64,000 bases of DNA from NCBI RefSeq assembly GCF_053078305.1, contig NZ_CP166879.1; one strand, 5' to 3'. The notes under the pieces were generated by a model. It worked only from the letters and a program-made list of their open reading frames with translations. It was not told the DNA's origin and ran no database searches. Positions 1 to 7,272 of the stretch are shown here, piece by piece. The position numbers were made by a program, and so were the translations under genes. The first letter of the stretch is position 1. Each line of letters starts with the position of its first letter.

Positions 1-65
1 GTCCATGCACGAACATGAGCGGGTGCACGGCCTTTTCGTCCCATGGGTTGTAATATCATCATGCA

Positions 66-581
66 TCACCCCCTGACTCGCTTTTCGGCAGCATAAAACT
101 CATCAGACAGAATTTCGGTCATTTTCCGTTTTGCGGAATCATCTTCGCACTGAAGGTAAATAACATTGTCAACGCAGAACCACTTAACGGGGCCAAACAG
201 TATTGCCGAGAAGTCAATGCCCAGCCAGAACAACAGCGCATCGGTTCTGGCATACGTGACGGGCGAATATTCACGCCACAGACTGTTCAGTTCATCAGAG
301 GCAACACGCAGGGTTTTAGGTATACGTGATGTGCGCGGCGTGCAGCTCCAGCCATTCGACGCAGTCGGTTTTCTCCATAAGTCGCGATGAAAAGGATATT
401 TGTCATCCATAAAGCGCAGCCCCTTAAAACAAAATCCACTGATACCGGATACAAATACCGGGCGGCACGCAACATTCAGCACAGCCTCAAGGCGTTTTGC
501 CTCATCTTTTACCGTCTGGCAGTCCTGCTGGTATTTTTGCCACGCAGCCAGCGCGGAAGGGTTTGAAGTTTTAAAGAACAT
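66..581 (-). CDS. hypothetical prophage early-region protein (171 aa)
   Basis: ORF in early operon downstream of gam; start overlaps upstream stop (TAATG); no family recognised. Confidence 0.5.
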   Translation of the reverse strand: MFFKTSNPSALAAWQKYQQDCQTVKDEAKRLEAVLNVACRPVFVSGISGFCFKGLRFMDDKYPFHRDLWRKPTASNGWSCTPRTSRIPKTLRVASDELNSLWREYSPVTYARTDALLFWLGIDFSAILFGPVKWFCVDNVIYLQCEDDSAKRKMTEILSDEFYAAEKRVRG

Positions 582-1114
582 TACGCCACCTCCGCAGAAA
601 TCGCGGCCGGTGCCGCTGTCCGGTCAACAATCAGGTAACGCAGAACGCGCGAGGTGATATTCCGGCCGCTTAAACCGCAGATAATGACGCCCAGGCGGAT
701 GTCGATATACGCCATCACAAACTGGGGCACGCCTTCTTTCATGGCCTGCTCATCAACTTCAGCCACCACATAAACGGTTTCACAGGTCAGAACGCCCTGA
801 GCAAATTCCCACGCCATCGACGGAATATCATGCCCCTCAATCCACGGCAGGGACTTTCTGAAGCTGCACCACTGAACATCATCAGCCGCACATTCCTGGC
901 TGCATTTGCGACGAACCGGCTGCACCGGGCGGGGACGCGGAATATCATAAAAACCGTTACATTCCGTCAGCACGCCTGCATCAACCGCATCACGCAGAAA
1001 ATAAACCATGGAGGATAGCGGCATATTCATTTTTTCTGCCAGAGAACGACTGGTCAGACGGCCAGAAAAACGCAGCCAGCTTTTAACCCCTTCAAGCACT
1101 TTTGCATCAATCAT
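581..1114 (-). CDS. hypothetical prophage early-region protein (177 aa)
   Basis: ORF co-directional with gam; no family recognised. Confidence 0.5.
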   Translation of the reverse strand: MIDAKVLEGVKSWLRFSGRLTSRSLAEKMNMPLSSMVYFLRDAVDAGVLTECNGFYDIPRPRPVQPVRRKCSQECAADDVQWCSFRKSLPWIEGHDIPSMAWEFAQGVLTCETVYVVAEVDEQAMKEGVPQFVMAYIDIRLGVIICGLSGRNITSRVLRYLIVDRTAAPAAISAEVA

Positions 1115-1259
1115 GATTTATTTCCCCACCACATTATTAATGACGATATAAACGTATTTCATATTTCTTAACCCTTATTTTCTGTTTTCAGGCGCAAGCA
1201 GTCCCCTGACGCAAGCGCCATAATTAAAACGATGTGATATTTAAAGATTTAATGCGGTG

Positions 1260-1790
1260 TTATTTATTCAGTCCGGCGTCCTGTTCAAAAGGCTCGACAT
1301 GAAAACTTTCAGCGCCTTTATTCACCTTAATACCAGCAATCCCTTTCACCGCATCCGGCTCCGCCAGGACAGCTTGCTTATTCACTTCCTCTTTCGTGCG
1401 GATGAAGCGCTCAAGCCCCATACGACGCAGCATTTCAATCACACCTTCCACATCACGACTGACGCTGCATGATGGATTTCCCAGCCGCCATGACACCGTT
1501 CCGGTGGTCAGATTGGCAGTTTTGGTTTCGCCGCCGTTCGTCAGCTCATTGCGGTTGGTTTTACACCAGTCATGAATCCCTTTAAAAAGCACTTTGATTT
1601 CTTTTTTAAGGTTTTCAATCTGCGGCGTATAACGGGCGGTGATTTCTGCCACTTCATCATTCATCGCCGTTTCCAGGCGCAGCGCCTCTCGCTGAATATC
1701 ACCCAGAGTGCGGATATCGCGGCTGACTTCTTCGCGGGTCTGTGGTGCGGCCTCGGCTGCGGCCTTTAATTTTGTAACACGTTTAACCAT
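1260..1790 (-). CDS. gam: Gam-like host-nuclease inhibitor / DNA-end binding protein
   Basis: Translation from internal Met (MVKRVTKLKAAAEA...) resembles phage Mu Gam along its length (LETAMND, ELTNGG, TANL, VSWR, FIRTK, PFEQ motifs). Confidence 0.8.
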   Translation of the reverse strand: MVKRVTKLKAAAEAAPQTREEVSRDIRTLGDIQREALRLETAMNDEVAEITARYTPQIENLKKEIKVLFKGIHDWCKTNRNELTNGGETKTANLTTGTVSWRLGNPSCSVSRDVEGVIEMLRRMGLERFIRTKEEVNKQAVLAEPDAVKGIAGIKVNKGAESFHVEPFEQDAGLNK

Positions 1791-1800
1791 TTTGTTTTCC

Positions 1801-2094
1801 TTATTGCAGTGCGCCTGATGCTTTATGCACACGGTGGCGTTTAATGATGGCATCCGCCCCAAAAGCCTGTACAGATGCCTGAAATTCCGCTGAGAGAAGC
1901 TGAATAATTGCAGGACTGTGATACTGGAGAATACTTGCATAAACGTCACAGAGTGACGTCGGGCTGTTCTCCGTATCACGTTCTGTTTTCACATCCACTC
2001 CAATCTTTTCATGCACTTCAACACAGTCATTGCCTGCCAGCTTTTCGTCATGCGAAACATGCTCAAATTCAAAAATAACGCGTACTTTGCTCAT
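1801..2094 (-). CDS. hypothetical small prophage protein, paralog 1
   Basis: Starts MSKVRVIFEFEHV; N-terminus paralogous to the adjacent upstream ORF; SD-like GGGG before the internal ATG. Confidence 0.5.
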   Translation of the reverse strand: MSKVRVIFEFEHVSHDEKLAGNDCVEVHEKIGVDVKTERDTENSPTSLCDVYASILQYHSPAIIQLLSAEFQASVQAFGADAIIKRHRVHKASGALQ

Positions 2095-2098
2095 GGAA

Positions 2099-2371
2099 TT
2101 ACCCCTGCTGATTAAATTCATTACCGTTAATAACCCCGGAAGCCATACCCCTGTCTTTCATGAATGCACTGGCTTTCATTGCCACAAGCTCTGCGAAGTT
2201 TCTGCTTTCTGCCAGCATAACCACCCCAAAAATCATGGCGGGTCCATTATCTTTCTTCTTTATTCCGGTTGAACGTATATCCAGACTTACCCCTCTGTGC
2301 GTGCTGCCATCAGAGTTTTTGCAGATAACATCTTCCTTGTATTCGAAAATAATGCGTACGACTTTACTCAT
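2099..2371 (-). CDS. hypothetical small prophage protein, paralog 2
   Basis: Starts MSKVVRIIFEYKEDV; AGAGGA SD-like sequence before the internal ATG; paralog of 1801-2094. Confidence 0.5.
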   Translation of the reverse strand: MSKVVRIIFEYKEDVICKNSDGSTHRGVSLDIRSTGIKKKDNGPAMIFGVVMLAESRNFAELVAMKASAFMKDRGMASGVINGNEFNQQG

Positions 2372-2445
2372 CCTCTGGCTCTCGTTTTGTTCGGATAACT
2401 GACCCGGCGTCTGACCTGATGACAGAGCCGAACCATGAAGCAACT

Positions 2446-2703
2446 TCATACTTCCCAGTAAACCGTGCATCCGCTTATGCGGGTGGCTTTCACACGGCGG
2501 CGCAGGCCGTTGGTCTTAACGGTGATTTCAATTTCCTCACCACTCCCCTGAACCTCGCCTACCGGCGGCGTGGTTTTCAGTGCAAAACGTTGCGGATAGC
2601 GCTTACTGCGTTCCAGTACCGCACCGGCAAGCTCGGTCAGGCGACGTGCGCTGTTCAGGGAGTCGAATAAATTCATTTTTTTACCGCTGGATTGCATATT
2701 CAT
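2446..2703 (-). CDS. hypothetical small prophage early protein (85 aa)
   Basis: ORF in early operon between the B-like and gam-like genes. Confidence 0.4.
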   Translation of the reverse strand: MNMQSSGKKMNLFDSLNSARRLTELAGAVLERSKRYPQRFALKTTPPVGEVQGSGEEIEITVKTNGLRRRVKATRISGCTVYWEV

Positions 2704-2715
2704 ATAACACCTCGT

Positions 2716-2943
2716 TTAACTGATTTGTTCAGCACCGATAAAACGGCAAATATTGCTGTAAGTTTCTGTCGCACCTTCGCGATCAAGTCCAACAGATATT
2801 GCCATTCGGGTGCGATCATTAAATTCAAAGAGTAAATCGCCACATTCTTCACTGTCAGACATGGAGACTGCTTTGACGTTATCGAAATTAACCAGGTAAA
2901 AGCGTCCGTAAATATCAGGAATATTAAATACCGCCATAATCAC
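2716..2943 (-). CDS. small early protein, possibly Kil-like (75 aa)
   Basis: Position immediately after the B-like gene and size match Mu kil; sequence identity not confirmed. Confidence 0.35.
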   Translation of the reverse strand: MIMAVFNIPDIYGRFYLVNFDNVKAVSMSDSEECGDLLFEFNDRTRMAISVGLDREGATETYSNICRFIGAEQIS

Positions 2944-3872
2944 ACCTGTGAAAGTAATTCAGGGTTGGTGTAAACCTCTTTAAAGGCCGCATTAATATGT
3001 TTTTCTGTCAGCGCCGCGCCTTCACCGCTGGCGGTGAGCCACGCCTGGTTAAGCGTATGTGTCAGAACGCGTAACGCCCCCGGCTTTTCAGCGATAGCCT
3101 GCATGACGGCCAGCTCGGCCTCACCACTGATCCCCCACGCCCTGGCAATGGCCAGCACATCCGCCTTTTTGGCCTTGCGAAGTTGTTTTGTACGGGCAAG
3201 ACGGCTGAACAGGCGCGATAAATCATCAAAGGCGCGGCGTCCACCTTTAAACAATCCGCGCGGGTTACCAATAAGTACCATCCCGATCCCCGTGGCGTCC
3301 TGAATTGCCCGGAGTTGTTCCAGACCGTCAATACCAAGATGATCTGCTTCGTCAACAATCACCAGTCCACGTGTTCCCGTCAGGCGACGGCGGATGGCGC
3401 GGGATAATGCCCCTTTGTTCGCGCGGGTGTAATCAATCCCCAGCGCATCGGCCAGCTCCAGCAAACACTCCGTGACGCTGGAGTGCGCGGGCGACAGGGT
3501 GATCATCCAGGTGTTCGGTTGCTCCTGACAGTAATTACGGGCCGTGGCCGTTTTACCCACACCCGGTACGCCCACAATGACGTTAATACAGCCCATCAGG
3601 CGAACCGCCTGAAACAGTGCGCGCAGCTCCTGGACTGTCTGCGTTTCAACAAACTGTGGCGGCTCGGGCAGTGCGCTTTGTTTATTCCAGTTCTCATACC
3701 AGGAACGCAGGGAAGCAGCCACAGCAGCGTTATCGCCTTTATATTTTCCCTTACGGAAAGCCGATAATGTGCCGTCGGAAATTCCCGCCTCTCTGGCGAT
3801 GGCATACTGCGTCAGTACGCCGCCATCAATAAGTTCATCAATGGTCTTGATTACATCGTTAATATCAGTCAT
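2940..3872 (-). CDS. MuB-like DNA transposition ATPase
   Basis: 310 aa, Walker A GVPGVGKT, N-terminal HTH-like segment, located after transposase as in Mu. Confidence 0.8.
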   Translation of the reverse strand: MTDINDVIKTIDELIDGGVLTQYAIAREAGISDGTLSAFRKGKYKGDNAAVAASLRSWYENWNKQSALPEPPQFVETQTVQELRALFQAVRLMGCINVIVGVPGVGKTATARNYCQEQPNTWMITLSPAHSSVTECLLELADALGIDYTRANKGALSRAIRRRLTGTRGLVIVDEADHLGIDGLEQLRAIQDATGIGMVLIGNPRGLFKGGRRAFDDLSRLFSRLARTKQLRKAKKADVLAIARAWGISGEAELAVMQAIAEKPGALRVLTHTLNQAWLTASGEGAALTEKHINAAFKEVYTNPELLSQV

Positions 3873-3943
3873 ATTATTAACCTCTCATTTGATACCTTGT
3901 TTAATCAAATAACCTGAGTCGCCGCTCGGGTTATTTTTTTATT

Positions 3944-6034
3944 TCAGGCCAGCGGGTCATTTTCTTTTAATTTCGCTTCCAGCAACTGCAATCCCCGCTG
4001 GAAATTACGCTCGTATTCTTCATCAGGTTCATCGTCAGCGACCGGTTGCTGAACGGTCACCGTATTACCCACAGGGCGGTATATGTTTTCCAGCCAGGGC
4101 TCCTGCGGCTTGTGCTCCAGCACGTTGACAACCTCATCCTCGGCATCACGGATTTTTTCCTCTGCGCGTTTACGCATGCCTTTAAGGCGTTGCTGCTGTT
4201 TGTAGTATTCCGCACTAACCGGGAAGGCTTCGCGTTTATTACCGTCCCATACCGCCTCGCAAATCACGCTGCCATCCAGGCGACGTACGGTAATTCGTTC
4301 GGCATCATGAATGTCATAGCTGATAAGCACCTTACGACCATGCTCGTCACGCAGCTCGGGCGCGTAGTAAATATTATTCAGCCAGCGTATTTCACAGCGT
4401 CTTACAGGGCGTTCCACCATCGGCCGGAACATATCCCGCAGCTCAACATCGGACAGCCATTCAATTTCCGTGTCCTCTTCCGCCAGGCGTTTTTTTCTGA
4501 ACTCCGCCGGGCTGTAATGCTTGCCGTTCGGCTTCACCGGTAATTCATCGTGCGGCCGGTTGTTGTACCACTCAACACCGTCACGAATGGCATCAATCAG
4601 TTCAGACCAGGACGGTAAATCACGCATCGCTGACTGCTGCCGGACGTTCAGCCGTTTGCCCTGTTGCAGGGCAGTAAATGCCGAGCGTAAATCGCGGTTG
4701 GTTTTGCGTAACGTCTCGCGATCTGCACCTTTCCCGAAATAGGTGCGGTATTTACGGGCTATGCGCATCGGTAATGTGCGGTTAAGCCGTTCGATAATGC
4801 CTCGTCCCTGCGGATTACCGGCAATCCCGGTCGGGTGATTAATCCCCAGTCGCGGCAGTATCCCCACAACCTCCTTATCCAGGATGTCGGCGGTTTCCCC
4901 GGAGCCGTTATCCGAGTAATACAGAAACGGTTTGCCGTGATGGCGAATGCCGTGCTGTATGGCACCGGCTACGGCGAAAACATTTTCAGCCAGGTCAAGG
5001 CTCCAGCCCACCACAAAGCGCGTGCCACCGTCGATAACAAAGGTCACTTCCGGTGCAAATGGCCGACCGTGAACCGGGTGTGCGCATTTCAGTTTCATGC
5101 CGTGACCGTCACCAATCCAGACATAATTCACCGGCATTTTTGACCAGTCGCGGCGCGTGAATCCCTCAAGCTGGCGGTATTCACTGCCGGTCACCCGGCC
5201 TTTTTGTTTCACCACTTCCGGCAGTTTCTTCATTGCGCGGCGAATGGTGTCATAAGACGGCATGATATCGAGCATATAAGGCTCATCAGCGTGCCGGTGC
5301 TGCCATTCAGCAACAAAATCCTCGTAAGCCTCGGTCATTGGTCGGCCGTTTGACTGGCGATACTGCGCCAGAAATTCGGGCAGCCAGTTAATATCTTCGG
5401 CTTTTATTTCCTGGCGCTTACCCGGTGCCAGTAAAAGCAGGCGTTCAGCGGCGTTCTGCGCCTTGTTAAAGGCCGCAATCCAGCGTTTCAGCGTGATTTC
5501 ACTTAACGCACGGCTGTTTCCCTTTTTGGCGTTCGCCGTCTCAACCATTGCCACAATGCGCTCGTCCAGCTGCGAACGTGCCAGGTTGTCAACGATAAAC
5601 CGGATAGCCTTCGCACAGCTGAAACCAGGTTGTTGCGCGACTTTCAGAACTTCGCTGACGATCGCGATTCGTGCATCAGCCACCTGGCGCTGGTTTTCAG
5701 TCAGGGCATTAAGGCGTTCGACCATCAGTTGTGGTGATCCGCGATATGCCTCCACCGCATCAACCACGGCAGGCGAGCGTCTGGCCTTTGTCACCACTGG
5801 AGCCGGTGATTCATCGACTTTTTGAGTCATCAGTTGCAGGGCGTAGCGTTCACGTAATGCCTGCTGCGTCACTTCAGGTAAACAGTCGATGCTGTATTCA
5901 GTTGCTTTAGAGCCTGAGCGACGACGGGAACAACAGCTTTTCCCTTGTACGTAACGTTGTAATGCCTGGCGAATACCTTTTGTTGTAGCAGGCATTCCGG
6001 GCGCGCCAATCAGTTCTTTTGCAATGACATACAT
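3944..6034 (-). CDS. MuA-like DDE transposase
   Basis: 696 aa ORF directly downstream of ner-like gene; size and position of Mu A. Confidence 0.8.
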   Translation of the reverse strand: MYVIAKELIGAPGMPATTKGIRQALQRYVQGKSCCSRRRSGSKATEYSIDCLPEVTQQALRERYALQLMTQKVDESPAPVVTKARRSPAVVDAVEAYRGSPQLMVERLNALTENQRQVADARIAIVSEVLKVAQQPGFSCAKAIRFIVDNLARSQLDERIVAMVETANAKKGNSRALSEITLKRWIAAFNKAQNAAERLLLLAPGKRQEIKAEDINWLPEFLAQYRQSNGRPMTEAYEDFVAEWQHRHADEPYMLDIMPSYDTIRRAMKKLPEVVKQKGRVTGSEYRQLEGFTRRDWSKMPVNYVWIGDGHGMKLKCAHPVHGRPFAPEVTFVIDGGTRFVVGWSLDLAENVFAVAGAIQHGIRHHGKPFLYYSDNGSGETADILDKEVVGILPRLGINHPTGIAGNPQGRGIIERLNRTLPMRIARKYRTYFGKGADRETLRKTNRDLRSAFTALQQGKRLNVRQQSAMRDLPSWSELIDAIRDGVEWYNNRPHDELPVKPNGKHYSPAEFRKKRLAEEDTEIEWLSDVELRDMFRPMVERPVRRCEIRWLNNIYYAPELRDEHGRKVLISYDIHDAERITVRRLDGSVICEAVWDGNKREAFPVSAEYYKQQQRLKGMRKRAEEKIRDAEDEVVNVLEHKPQEPWLENIYRPVGNTVTVQQPVADDEPDEEYERNFQRGLQLLEAKLKENDPLA

Positions 6035-6035
6035 A

Positions 6036-6284
6036 TCATGACGCCTTTCTCATATAGCTCTTAACCTGGTATCGACTGGGCCAGATTTCTTCAGGCGATA
6101 CCCCAAGAGCATCAGCAATTATTTGCTGATACGGTCGGCAAGGAGTACGTAATACGCTTTTCAGCGAATCCCTGCTGTAACCAGCCTTTAAAGATAAAGA
6201 GCGCAGTGATAAGCCAGCCATGTGTAAGCGCGCCTTGATGATTTCAGGCGGCCAATCGTGATCTGAAACTTCTCTTCTACTCAT
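6036..6284 (-). CDS. ner: Ner-like DNA-binding regulator
   Basis: 82 aa; C-terminal IIADALGVSPEEIWPSRYQ resembles Mu Ner. Confidence 0.75.
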   Translation of the reverse strand: MSRREVSDHDWPPEIIKARLHMAGLSLRSLSLKAGYSRDSLKSVLRTPCRPYQQIIADALGVSPEEIWPSRYQVKSYMRKAS

Positions 6285-6354
6285 ACTTCCTCTATTCTAA
6301 AAAGTTACCCGCGCGGATATTCGTGCGGATATCTGTACGGGTAAATAATGCATC

Positions 6355-6395
6355 ACTAAAAATACCAAATCAAGGTATTTTTGGTATTTTGGATA
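6355..6395. promoter_or_regulatory. operator/promoter region between divergent ner and c genes
   Basis: Inverted and direct repeats aaaatacc / ggtatttt (x2) in the divergent intergenic region. Confidence 0.4.
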
Positions 6396-6474
6396 ATTTT
6401 TGCTTTTATCCTTATTTTTCAATTGGATAAATAGAAAGAAACCTTTCCTTAGAAAAGCACCAAGAGGTATCTTT

Positions 6475-7005
6475 ATGTCGCAGGGAAAAGAACCTGTTAT
6501 TGAACGTATTGGAATGCTTACAAAGCGCTACCCTTCAAGAAGTGCAGCTGCCAGAGCGTGGGGAATCAATATCAACACATTAAACAGCTATTTCAAGGGA
6601 GGACAAACACAACCAGCCCCCAGAGAAAGTATCCTTATACGAATTTCTGAAAGTGAAGGAGTTAGTCTTGAGTGGCTTAAAGAGGGCAAGGGTGAATCAC
6701 CAAATGATGTTGGTATTTGTGGTAATTTTGGTTGTTCTGGTGATAAGGGAGATCAGCTTACACAGATGCTTTCATTCCTTACGAAAGACGAACGAGAACA
6801 GTTAACCAATCTCCTTGCTCGCAAAGGTGTAGAGACGGTTCTGACACTACTGGATAAAGAAAACCAGGATTTATTACAACTAGAAGGCAGGAAGCGCCTG
6901 GCTGCGTTGATGATTGTAGATATGCCAGACGATTGCGTCAGAGAGATTTTGGAAAAAACCGAGACAAGTAGGCAATCAAATCCGGTAGAATCTAAAGCGG
7001 GTTAG
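6475..7005 (+). CDS. prophage repressor (c-like)
   Basis: Divergent from ner, reads toward the prophage end; HTH-like N-terminus; AGAGG SD before the ATG at 6475. Confidence 0.65.
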   Translation: MSQGKEPVIERIGMLTKRYPSRSAAARAWGININTLNSYFKGGQTQPAPRESILIRISESEGVSLEWLKEGKGESPNDVGICGNFGCSGDKGDQLTQMLSFLTKDEREQLTNLLARKGVETVLTLLDKENQDLLQLEGRKRLAALMIVDMPDDCVREILEKTETSRQSNPVESKAG

Positions 7006-7272
7006 TTTGGCGAGGCTGGCCCGTATGTTAGTTGCCATATAGATTTAATGAAGTTTTAAACGCTTTAAAAAAGTTGAGATCGCAGTATCAAAAGTTTTGC
7101 CGATTTTAGAATAAACGATTAATTATTGCACAATCGGTATCAAATAGACTTTAAGCGCTCATCCAGACATCACCTGTTTTATTTCAGTATCTTACAGGTG
7201 ATTTCACCTCCTTTCACTAAAACCCTCGTTGGTATCAAATGATTCACCTGGTTACACCAGGCACAGAGTAAT

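Follow-up and report, generated by a model that had tools for sequence, protein, structure and literature searches.

Two adjacent small early-operon genes of an Sp18-like Mu-type prophage: a relative of phage D108 gp7 and its probable tandem paralog

The first 7.1 kb of the stretch of DNA analysed here (64,000 nucleotides, contig NZ_CP166879.1; hereafter, the window) belong to an Sp18-like prophage of the Mu type and form its left, early end, which reads along the minus strand. The early genes are arranged in the order repressor, ner, MuA, MuB, a 75-aa ORF, Kil, A, B and Gam, where A and B designate the two small genes that are the subject of this study. The features of the region are as follows.

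6400-7005, plus strand: repressor, at the early end of the prophage
6036-6284, minus strand: ner, at the head of the early operon (ORF; PGAP annotation of locus L001, which is 98.8% identical)
3944-6034, minus strand: MuA transposase (ORF; PGAP annotation of L001, 98.8% identical)
2940-3872, minus strand: MuB (ORF; PGAP annotation of L001, 98.8% identical)
2716-2943, minus strand: ORF of 75 aa, phrog_3375
2446-2703, minus strand: Kil-like gene, phrog_2679 ('Kil protein for bacterial septation inhibition', E 6e-41), with homologs in Pfam PF26843
2368-2449, minus strand: remnant of a gene, X, from which ~197 bp are deleted, leaving its first ~13 codons fused to the final 15 and the stop codon
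2372-2449, minus strand: in-frame upstream extension of A, 26 codons, in translation MKLLHGSALSSGQTPGQLSEQNESQR
2099-2371, minus strand: gene A, ORF of 90 aa with N-terminus MSKVVRIIFEYKEDV..., phrog_4107
1801-2094, minus strand: gene B, ORF of 97 aa with N-terminus MSKVRVIFEFEHV..., phrog_2230
1260-1790, minus strand: gam, encoding a Mu Gam-like host-nuclease inhibitor (phrog_491, E 1e-66), directly downstream of B

An earlier note on this DNA had reported two adjacent minus-strand ORFs with near-identical N-termini and had placed them in the early region of a Mu-like prophage. The coordinates and the quoted N-termini proved exact, and the placement is borne out by the gene order from repressor to Gam, by the PHROG matches and by the PGAP annotation. 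PGAP's gene calls for A (273 nt) and B (294 nt) in related E. coli genomes agree with these ORFs in start and length, both being named 'hypothetical protein', and the gam gene of relatives carries the name 'host-nuclease inhibitor Gam family protein'. Since no promoter-like or terminator-like site was found on the minus strand in or between A and B, both are internal genes of the early operon; from the ner end of the operon to gam, the only terminator-like site on this strand lies inside MuB (3250-3226). The part of the prophage that carries A and B (window positions 1700-2800) has prophage matches in 231 of 5426 complete E. coli genomes (~4%), many of which are O157 and other Shiga-toxin-producing strains.

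In most relatives an intact gene X (88-93 aa), matching phrog_1518 'host nuclease inhibitor' at E 8.5e-43, is found between Kil and A. The ~197-bp deletion that removed most of it is shared by the window with about 14 loci out of a comparison of 49 E. coli-type loci. X codons 1-13 are thereby fused to the X tail in another reading frame, and the X start codon comes to be in frame with A. This creates a possible X'-A fusion ORF of 116 aa (2099-2449, minus strand), the ATG of which overlaps the stop codon of Kil (ATGA). The extension is open in all of the ~14 X-deleted loci, including diverged ones that carry substitutions, and products of 116 aa have been called by other pipelines (P0002, P0023). 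The ATG of A itself is abutted by a GAGG without any spacer, and in phages with an intact X it overlaps the X stop codon, so that A in the window may, to judge from this arrangement, be made as an X'-A fusion.

The similarity between A and B is supported by alignment. BLASTP aligned the two proteins over ~50 residues (1-50) with E=0.001, and the score of their local alignment was reached by only one of 2000 shuffles. When searched with a broadened B-family HMM, A was the top non-self match among ~800 decoy ORFs (six-frame window segments), with 19.8 bits and E 3e-5, as against 4.8 bits or less for unrelated ORFs; the stop-to-stop segment containing A itself scored 18.1 bits and P0033, the most divergent A protein, 15.5 bits. 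In the other direction, the best non-self match of an A HMM was a Salmonella B homolog (E 0.003). The shared N-terminal stretch contains three codons that differ synonymously (AGT/AGC, GTC/GTA, TTC/TTT), and the sequences 5′ of the two ATG codons are unrelated. Because synonymous sites differ, the match appears to be held at the protein level instead of reflecting a recent DNA copy, and for the same reason recent gene conversion was rejected as the cause of the shared N-terminus; in combination with the unrelated upstream sequences, these differences point to a constraint on the peptide and not on an RNA signal. It could be argued that A and B are unrelated and that the common N-terminus is a coincidence or is imposed by the translation initiation region of the mRNA, given that both genes begin with ATGAG(T/C)AAAGT and occupy tightly packed, translationally coupled positions. 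We consider this highly improbable and already largely refuted: the same amino acids are kept where synonymous positions differ, chance is rejected by the shuffle and decoy tests, and the VIFEF strand motif in question is the best-conserved part of the entire B family at an overall identity of 28%, D108 gp7 included.

The earlier note could not assign either gene to a family, which no longer holds. A matches the phrog_4107 profile from end to end (E 6.5e-55, residues 1-90 on positions 1-90 of 90), and B matches phrog_2230 (E 2.4e-37, residues 3-97 on positions 1-88 of 89). To phrog_2230 also belongs gp7 of phage D108 (YP_003335755.1), with E 4.5e-40; other matches to this profile are the Salmonella protein P0068 (E 8.5e-24) and P0162 (E 4e-11). 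An HMM of Salmonella sequences only gave 59 bits for B and 41 bits for D108 gp7 (E 6e-12), and 7.9 bits for A (E 0.18 in ~800 sequences). From the common PHROG and the score of D108 gp7 against the Salmonella-only HMM, B can be assigned to the family of D108 gp7. It is probably the local ortholog of D108 gp7, in a family of proteins of ~90 aa that would consist of a long N-terminal beta-hairpin and two helices after it.

The breadth of this family emerged only with deep profiles. Word-seeded searches for relatives of A and B returned close E. coli relatives only. An exhaustive hmmsearch of 1.84 billion representative proteins with a profile concatenated from A and B yielded 17 proteins in all, adding four proteins of 97-98 aa that matched the B half with E 1e-6 to 1e-4. 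Extended by these four, the B profile reached more than 60 Salmonella enterica clusters at ~28% identity, a second E. coli allele class at ~55% identity, and P0162, a distant metagenomic member of 87 aa, from which tblastn led to D108 gp7. A scan of IMG/VR recovered E. coli-type loci only. Members of the B family are known in E. coli and Salmonella Mu-like prophages, always within the Mu-type early operon. In the sampled prophages (Salmonella, metagenomic and E. coli), the gene follows kil, or comes straight after a 74-aa ORF that follows MuB, and it is located directly upstream of gam or of a DUF3164 gene. The latter is the gene next after the B homolog in Mu-like phages from Salmonella and metagenomes (L004 6303-6941, L006 5275-5913), where it occupies the place that gam has in the E. 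coli phages.

B and D108 gp7 are ~24% identical, have similar lengths and share the N-terminal V-I-F-x-F strand and an 'AP.II' helix motif, and each gene has its place between kil and gam within the early operon. There are nevertheless differences in arrangement. In D108, gp7 stands between gp6 and gp8, and gp8 and gp9 follow before gam, whereas B here abuts gam; a gp8-like gene is located upstream of kil in the present lineage, where it is present at all. Moreover, D108 has a single copy of gp7 and the lineage studied here has two, A and B, A being a weak relative of the family according to hhalign and the B-family HMM. Mu gp7 (E6, phrog_10252), a protein of 87 aa with the N-terminus MAKVIIEI and a similar hydrophobic pattern, occupies the same slot of the early operon, matches phrog_2230 weakly (E 0.009) and is among the top weak matches of the A HMM. 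However, its homology to the A and B families is not demonstrable, with hhalign probabilities of 0.1-1.4%, and tblastn gave no cross-match between Mu gp7 and A or B, Mu gp7 finding Mu, SfMu and Yersinia phages only. ORF7 has been reported as one of the few early proteins with less than 50% identity between Mu/SfMu and D108 (PMC4406740).

The distribution of A is narrower than that of B. The gene was found only in the E. coli lineage, where it is always directly upstream of B if B is present, and the search with the concatenated A+B profile among 1.84 billion representative proteins detected no distant relatives of A. In no locus examined was A followed by a gene other than B, with the single exception of L013, which has no B and in which an IS66 element follows A.

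The earlier note had proposed that the two genes are tandem paralogs, and this is most likely so, considering hhalign, the HMM rankings in both directions and the gene order in L054 and in the Salmonella phages. Overall, it is probable that A and B are accessory genes of the early operon, of which B belongs to the D108 gp7 family and A is its diverged tandem paralog. What is still recognisable between A and B is the N-terminal strand (KV.VIFEF) and the order of the secondary-structure elements. The extent of the similarity needs to be weighed here, as A could also be a chimera: copying or recombination would have placed just the first 30-100 nt of B at the 5′ end of an unrelated small gene, and the two would share the strand and not the fold. 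In pairwise and shallow-profile tests, significant similarity indeed reaches no further than the N-terminal 12-34 residues. Once the first 12 residues are removed, the A-B score is matched by 200 of 2000 shuffles and is not significant, and a profile-profile comparison of the shallow families gave 83.5% probability and E 8e-6 over residues 1-34. The C-terminal halves of A and B lack detectable similarity, the remote-homology clustering of PHROGs keeps the two in separate families, and hmmscan of A against phrog_2230 gave no match even at E 10. The low score of A with the Salmonella-only HMM (7.9 bits) likewise speaks against the paralogy. In addition, locus L054 demonstrates that both 5′ ends can occupy the same junction. 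On the other hand, the alignment lengthens as the profiles deepen. Intermediate alignments gave hhalign probabilities of 37-78%, and against the deeper B-family profile A reached 89.8% (E 1.8e-6) over 64 columns, which span the hairpin of the B model and extend into the first helix. A and B also match in length and in predicted element order (strand, strand, helix); the elements predicted for A (E7-10, E31-34, H54-73) coincide with those of B under hhalign, although the A model has a pLDDT of only 44. After the Salmonella B homolog, the A HMM ranked mostly other gp7-slot proteins highest among non-self matches (from Salmonella, E. coli, a Yersinia phage and Mu), and no donor family for the C-terminal part of A exists among the 1.84 billion representatives. 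A chimeric origin thus seems distinctly unlikely.

The comparison of gene orders lends the paralogy independent support. Salmonella phages have the order Kil-X-B, the X stop codon overlapping the ATG of B, and no A. The order (X-)A-B is found in 48 of the 49 E. coli-type loci, where it is A that adjoins X. The only E. coli-type locus without A is L054 (IMGVR_UViG_2654587996_000001, 2902-3294), in which an X remnant or tail runs straight on, in frame, into a class-2 B allele. L054 either represents the arrangement that preceded duplication, or lost its A when the two genes recombined at their similar 5′ ends. The gene order fits a tandem duplication of one gene length followed by fast divergence, and a loss of A is equally possible. 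Following the tandem-paralog reading, a tandem copy of B would have been placed between X and B within the E. coli lineage and would have become A, diverging strongly and changing its charge, A having a pI of 9.3 and B one of 5.8.

Selection on the two genes was assessed by pairwise Nei-Gojobori estimates across ten loci. The dN/dS ratio is 0.25-0.33 for A and 0.27-0.39 for deep pairs of B; very close B alleles (fewer than 10 changes) have ratios near 1, which are not informative. For comparison, the 75-aa ORF has ~0.26-0.31 (0.15 in one pair), and gam has 0.07-0.10 against the window and 0-0.03 between other loci. A and B are under purifying selection, more relaxed than that on gam, and it follows that both are real coding genes. 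The earlier note had likened the pair to host-takeover or anti-defence loci under selection; in the sense of diversifying selection, this is not borne out by ratios of 0.25-0.39 at the whole-gene level. Variation at the locus takes another form. B falls into two deep allele classes with ~55% amino-acid identity, dN of 0.3 and dS of ~0.9-1.2, and these classes reassort independently of A and gam genes that are nearly identical (L010-L015 as compared with window positions 1801-2094). For instance, L011 and L014 have identical A proteins, with one synonymous difference between the genes, and identical Gam, and carry B genes of different classes. The independent exchange of B implies recombination breakpoints at the gene boundaries. 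This cassette-like exchange of B, together with the difference between the gp7 proteins of Mu and D108, marks the gp7 slot as a variable accessory position and is no evidence of positive selection.

Structure prediction was informative for B. A confident AlphaFold model from a 77-sequence alignment (pLDDT 84.9, pTM 0.70) has a long beta-hairpin (4-21/24-39), two helices (48-58 and 60-77) and a disordered tail, whereas the AF2 model of A, made from a shallow alignment, is unreliable (pLDDT 44). A fold search with the B model retrieved its own family only from AFDB50, and nothing at E 0.001 or better from BFVD.

Searches directed at function returned no leads. Neither A nor B has a match in Pfam or NCBIfam, a PDB sequence search with three profiles gave nothing significant for either, and PADLOC assigned neither to a defence family at E 1 or better. 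In these sequence searches and the fold searches with B, no characterised anti-defence or anti-restriction inhibitor (Ocr, ArdA, Acr, Acb and similar) was matched, and neither protein has the strong net negative charge of a DNA mimic; a literature survey on the accessions, Sp18, the semi-essential early region and anti-defence yielded no functional data on these proteins. A is basic and B mildly acidic, and neither is hydrophobic or strongly acidic; on the latter account, a reading of A or B as DNA mimics was rejected. A type II toxin-antitoxin pair was rejected as well, as A and B are homologous and match no toxin or antitoxin family in Pfam or NCBIfam, and as B occurs alone in Salmonella, in D108 and in L054.

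A and B would be small, soluble, cytoplasmic proteins, made from the early lytic operon of the Sp18-like Mu-type prophage and encoded in a non-essential accessory stretch between kil and gam. Small accessory host-interaction proteins are encoded near the transposition genes of other transposable phages, as in the case of Tip of D3112 and Aqs1 of DMS3, and vary between related transposable Pseudomonas phages. For A and B the analogy is one of genomic position only, given that no link in sequence or fold to Tip or Aqs1 was found (BFVD, and AFDB50 with the B model). The role in host takeover or anti-defence that had been suggested for the two genes is plausible, and the databases and papers searched neither favour it nor contradict it. 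Their position and variability would best suit a non-essential early protein that binds a host macromolecule, the hairpin of the B model probably mediating dimerisation, possibly into an A/B heterodimer. It is conceivable, if somewhat short of an even chance, that A and B bind a protein or nucleic acid of the host at the start of lytic growth, in takeover or counter-defence.

A serious alternative is that the two proteins are directed at the phage itself, serving its transposition, replication or immunity control in the manner of the genetically defined arm and cim, and not at host targets. The genes are part of the same operon and come directly after MuA, MuB and Kil, B-family genes keep a fixed position across the Mu-like phages of E. 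coli and Salmonella, and both A and B are under purifying selection. The semi-essential early region of Mu is reported to carry arm, cim, sot and gem, with functions in replication, immunity and regulation that have not all been assigned to ORFs (PMC4553209). Nevertheless, we regard a phage-directed role as unlikely, because the same slot in Mu holds a protein without demonstrable homology, one locus (L054) manages without A, and neither Pfam nor NCBIfam reveals a DNA-binding or known regulatory motif. Furthermore, alleles of B that are only 55% identical are swapped beside near-identical flanks, which would be unexpected for a partner of the highly conserved transposition machinery.

A bolder variant of the host-directed reading, which seems to us quite improbable as a whole, is that the gp7 slot of Mu-like phages of enterobacteria is a hypervariable cassette of inhibitors aimed at a polymorphic host target, for example a defence system or a nuclease dealt with alongside Gam and X. 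The duplication in the E. coli lineage would then have widened the target range, a basic A and an acidic B would work as a heterodimer or on different variants of the target, and the B classes would be kept by balancing selection.

The present analysis links two families of 'hypothetical protein', found in ~4% of complete E. coli genomes, to D108 gp7 and to each other, and places the gp7 slot among the most variable positions of a Mu-type early operon that is conserved elsewhere. The locus itself is an ordinary accessory one within the early region; its immediate value is modest, and it has no bearing on any long-standing open question. Should A and B turn out to act in host takeover or counter-defence, D108 gp7 would offer a tractable laboratory model for the whole family.

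Several further rearrangements were noted in and around the locus. In L013 (NZ_AP045822.1, 1-1744), the IS66-family element that follows A is ISEc22, which stands in place of B and gam; the C-terminus of A is truncated and altered by it, so that the variant protein has 98 aa and ends in ...SKRRLSTVWQILKFLRE. A Mu gp8-like gene (137-139 aa) is inserted between the 75-aa ORF and Kil in L001 (6962-7381), L009 (4290-4709) and L004 (5095-5508) and is absent from the window, a further instance of mosaicism in the early accessory region. Lastly, positions 1-7100 of the window are 95-96% identical, over the whole 7.1 kb, to a Mu-like element in LC727895.1 and LC727881.1, where it is annotated as an insertion ('Bacteriophage Mu-like phage') within Stx1a- and Stx2c-converting prophages. 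The location of the element inside Stx-converting prophages indicates that the Mu-like phage transposes into other prophages.
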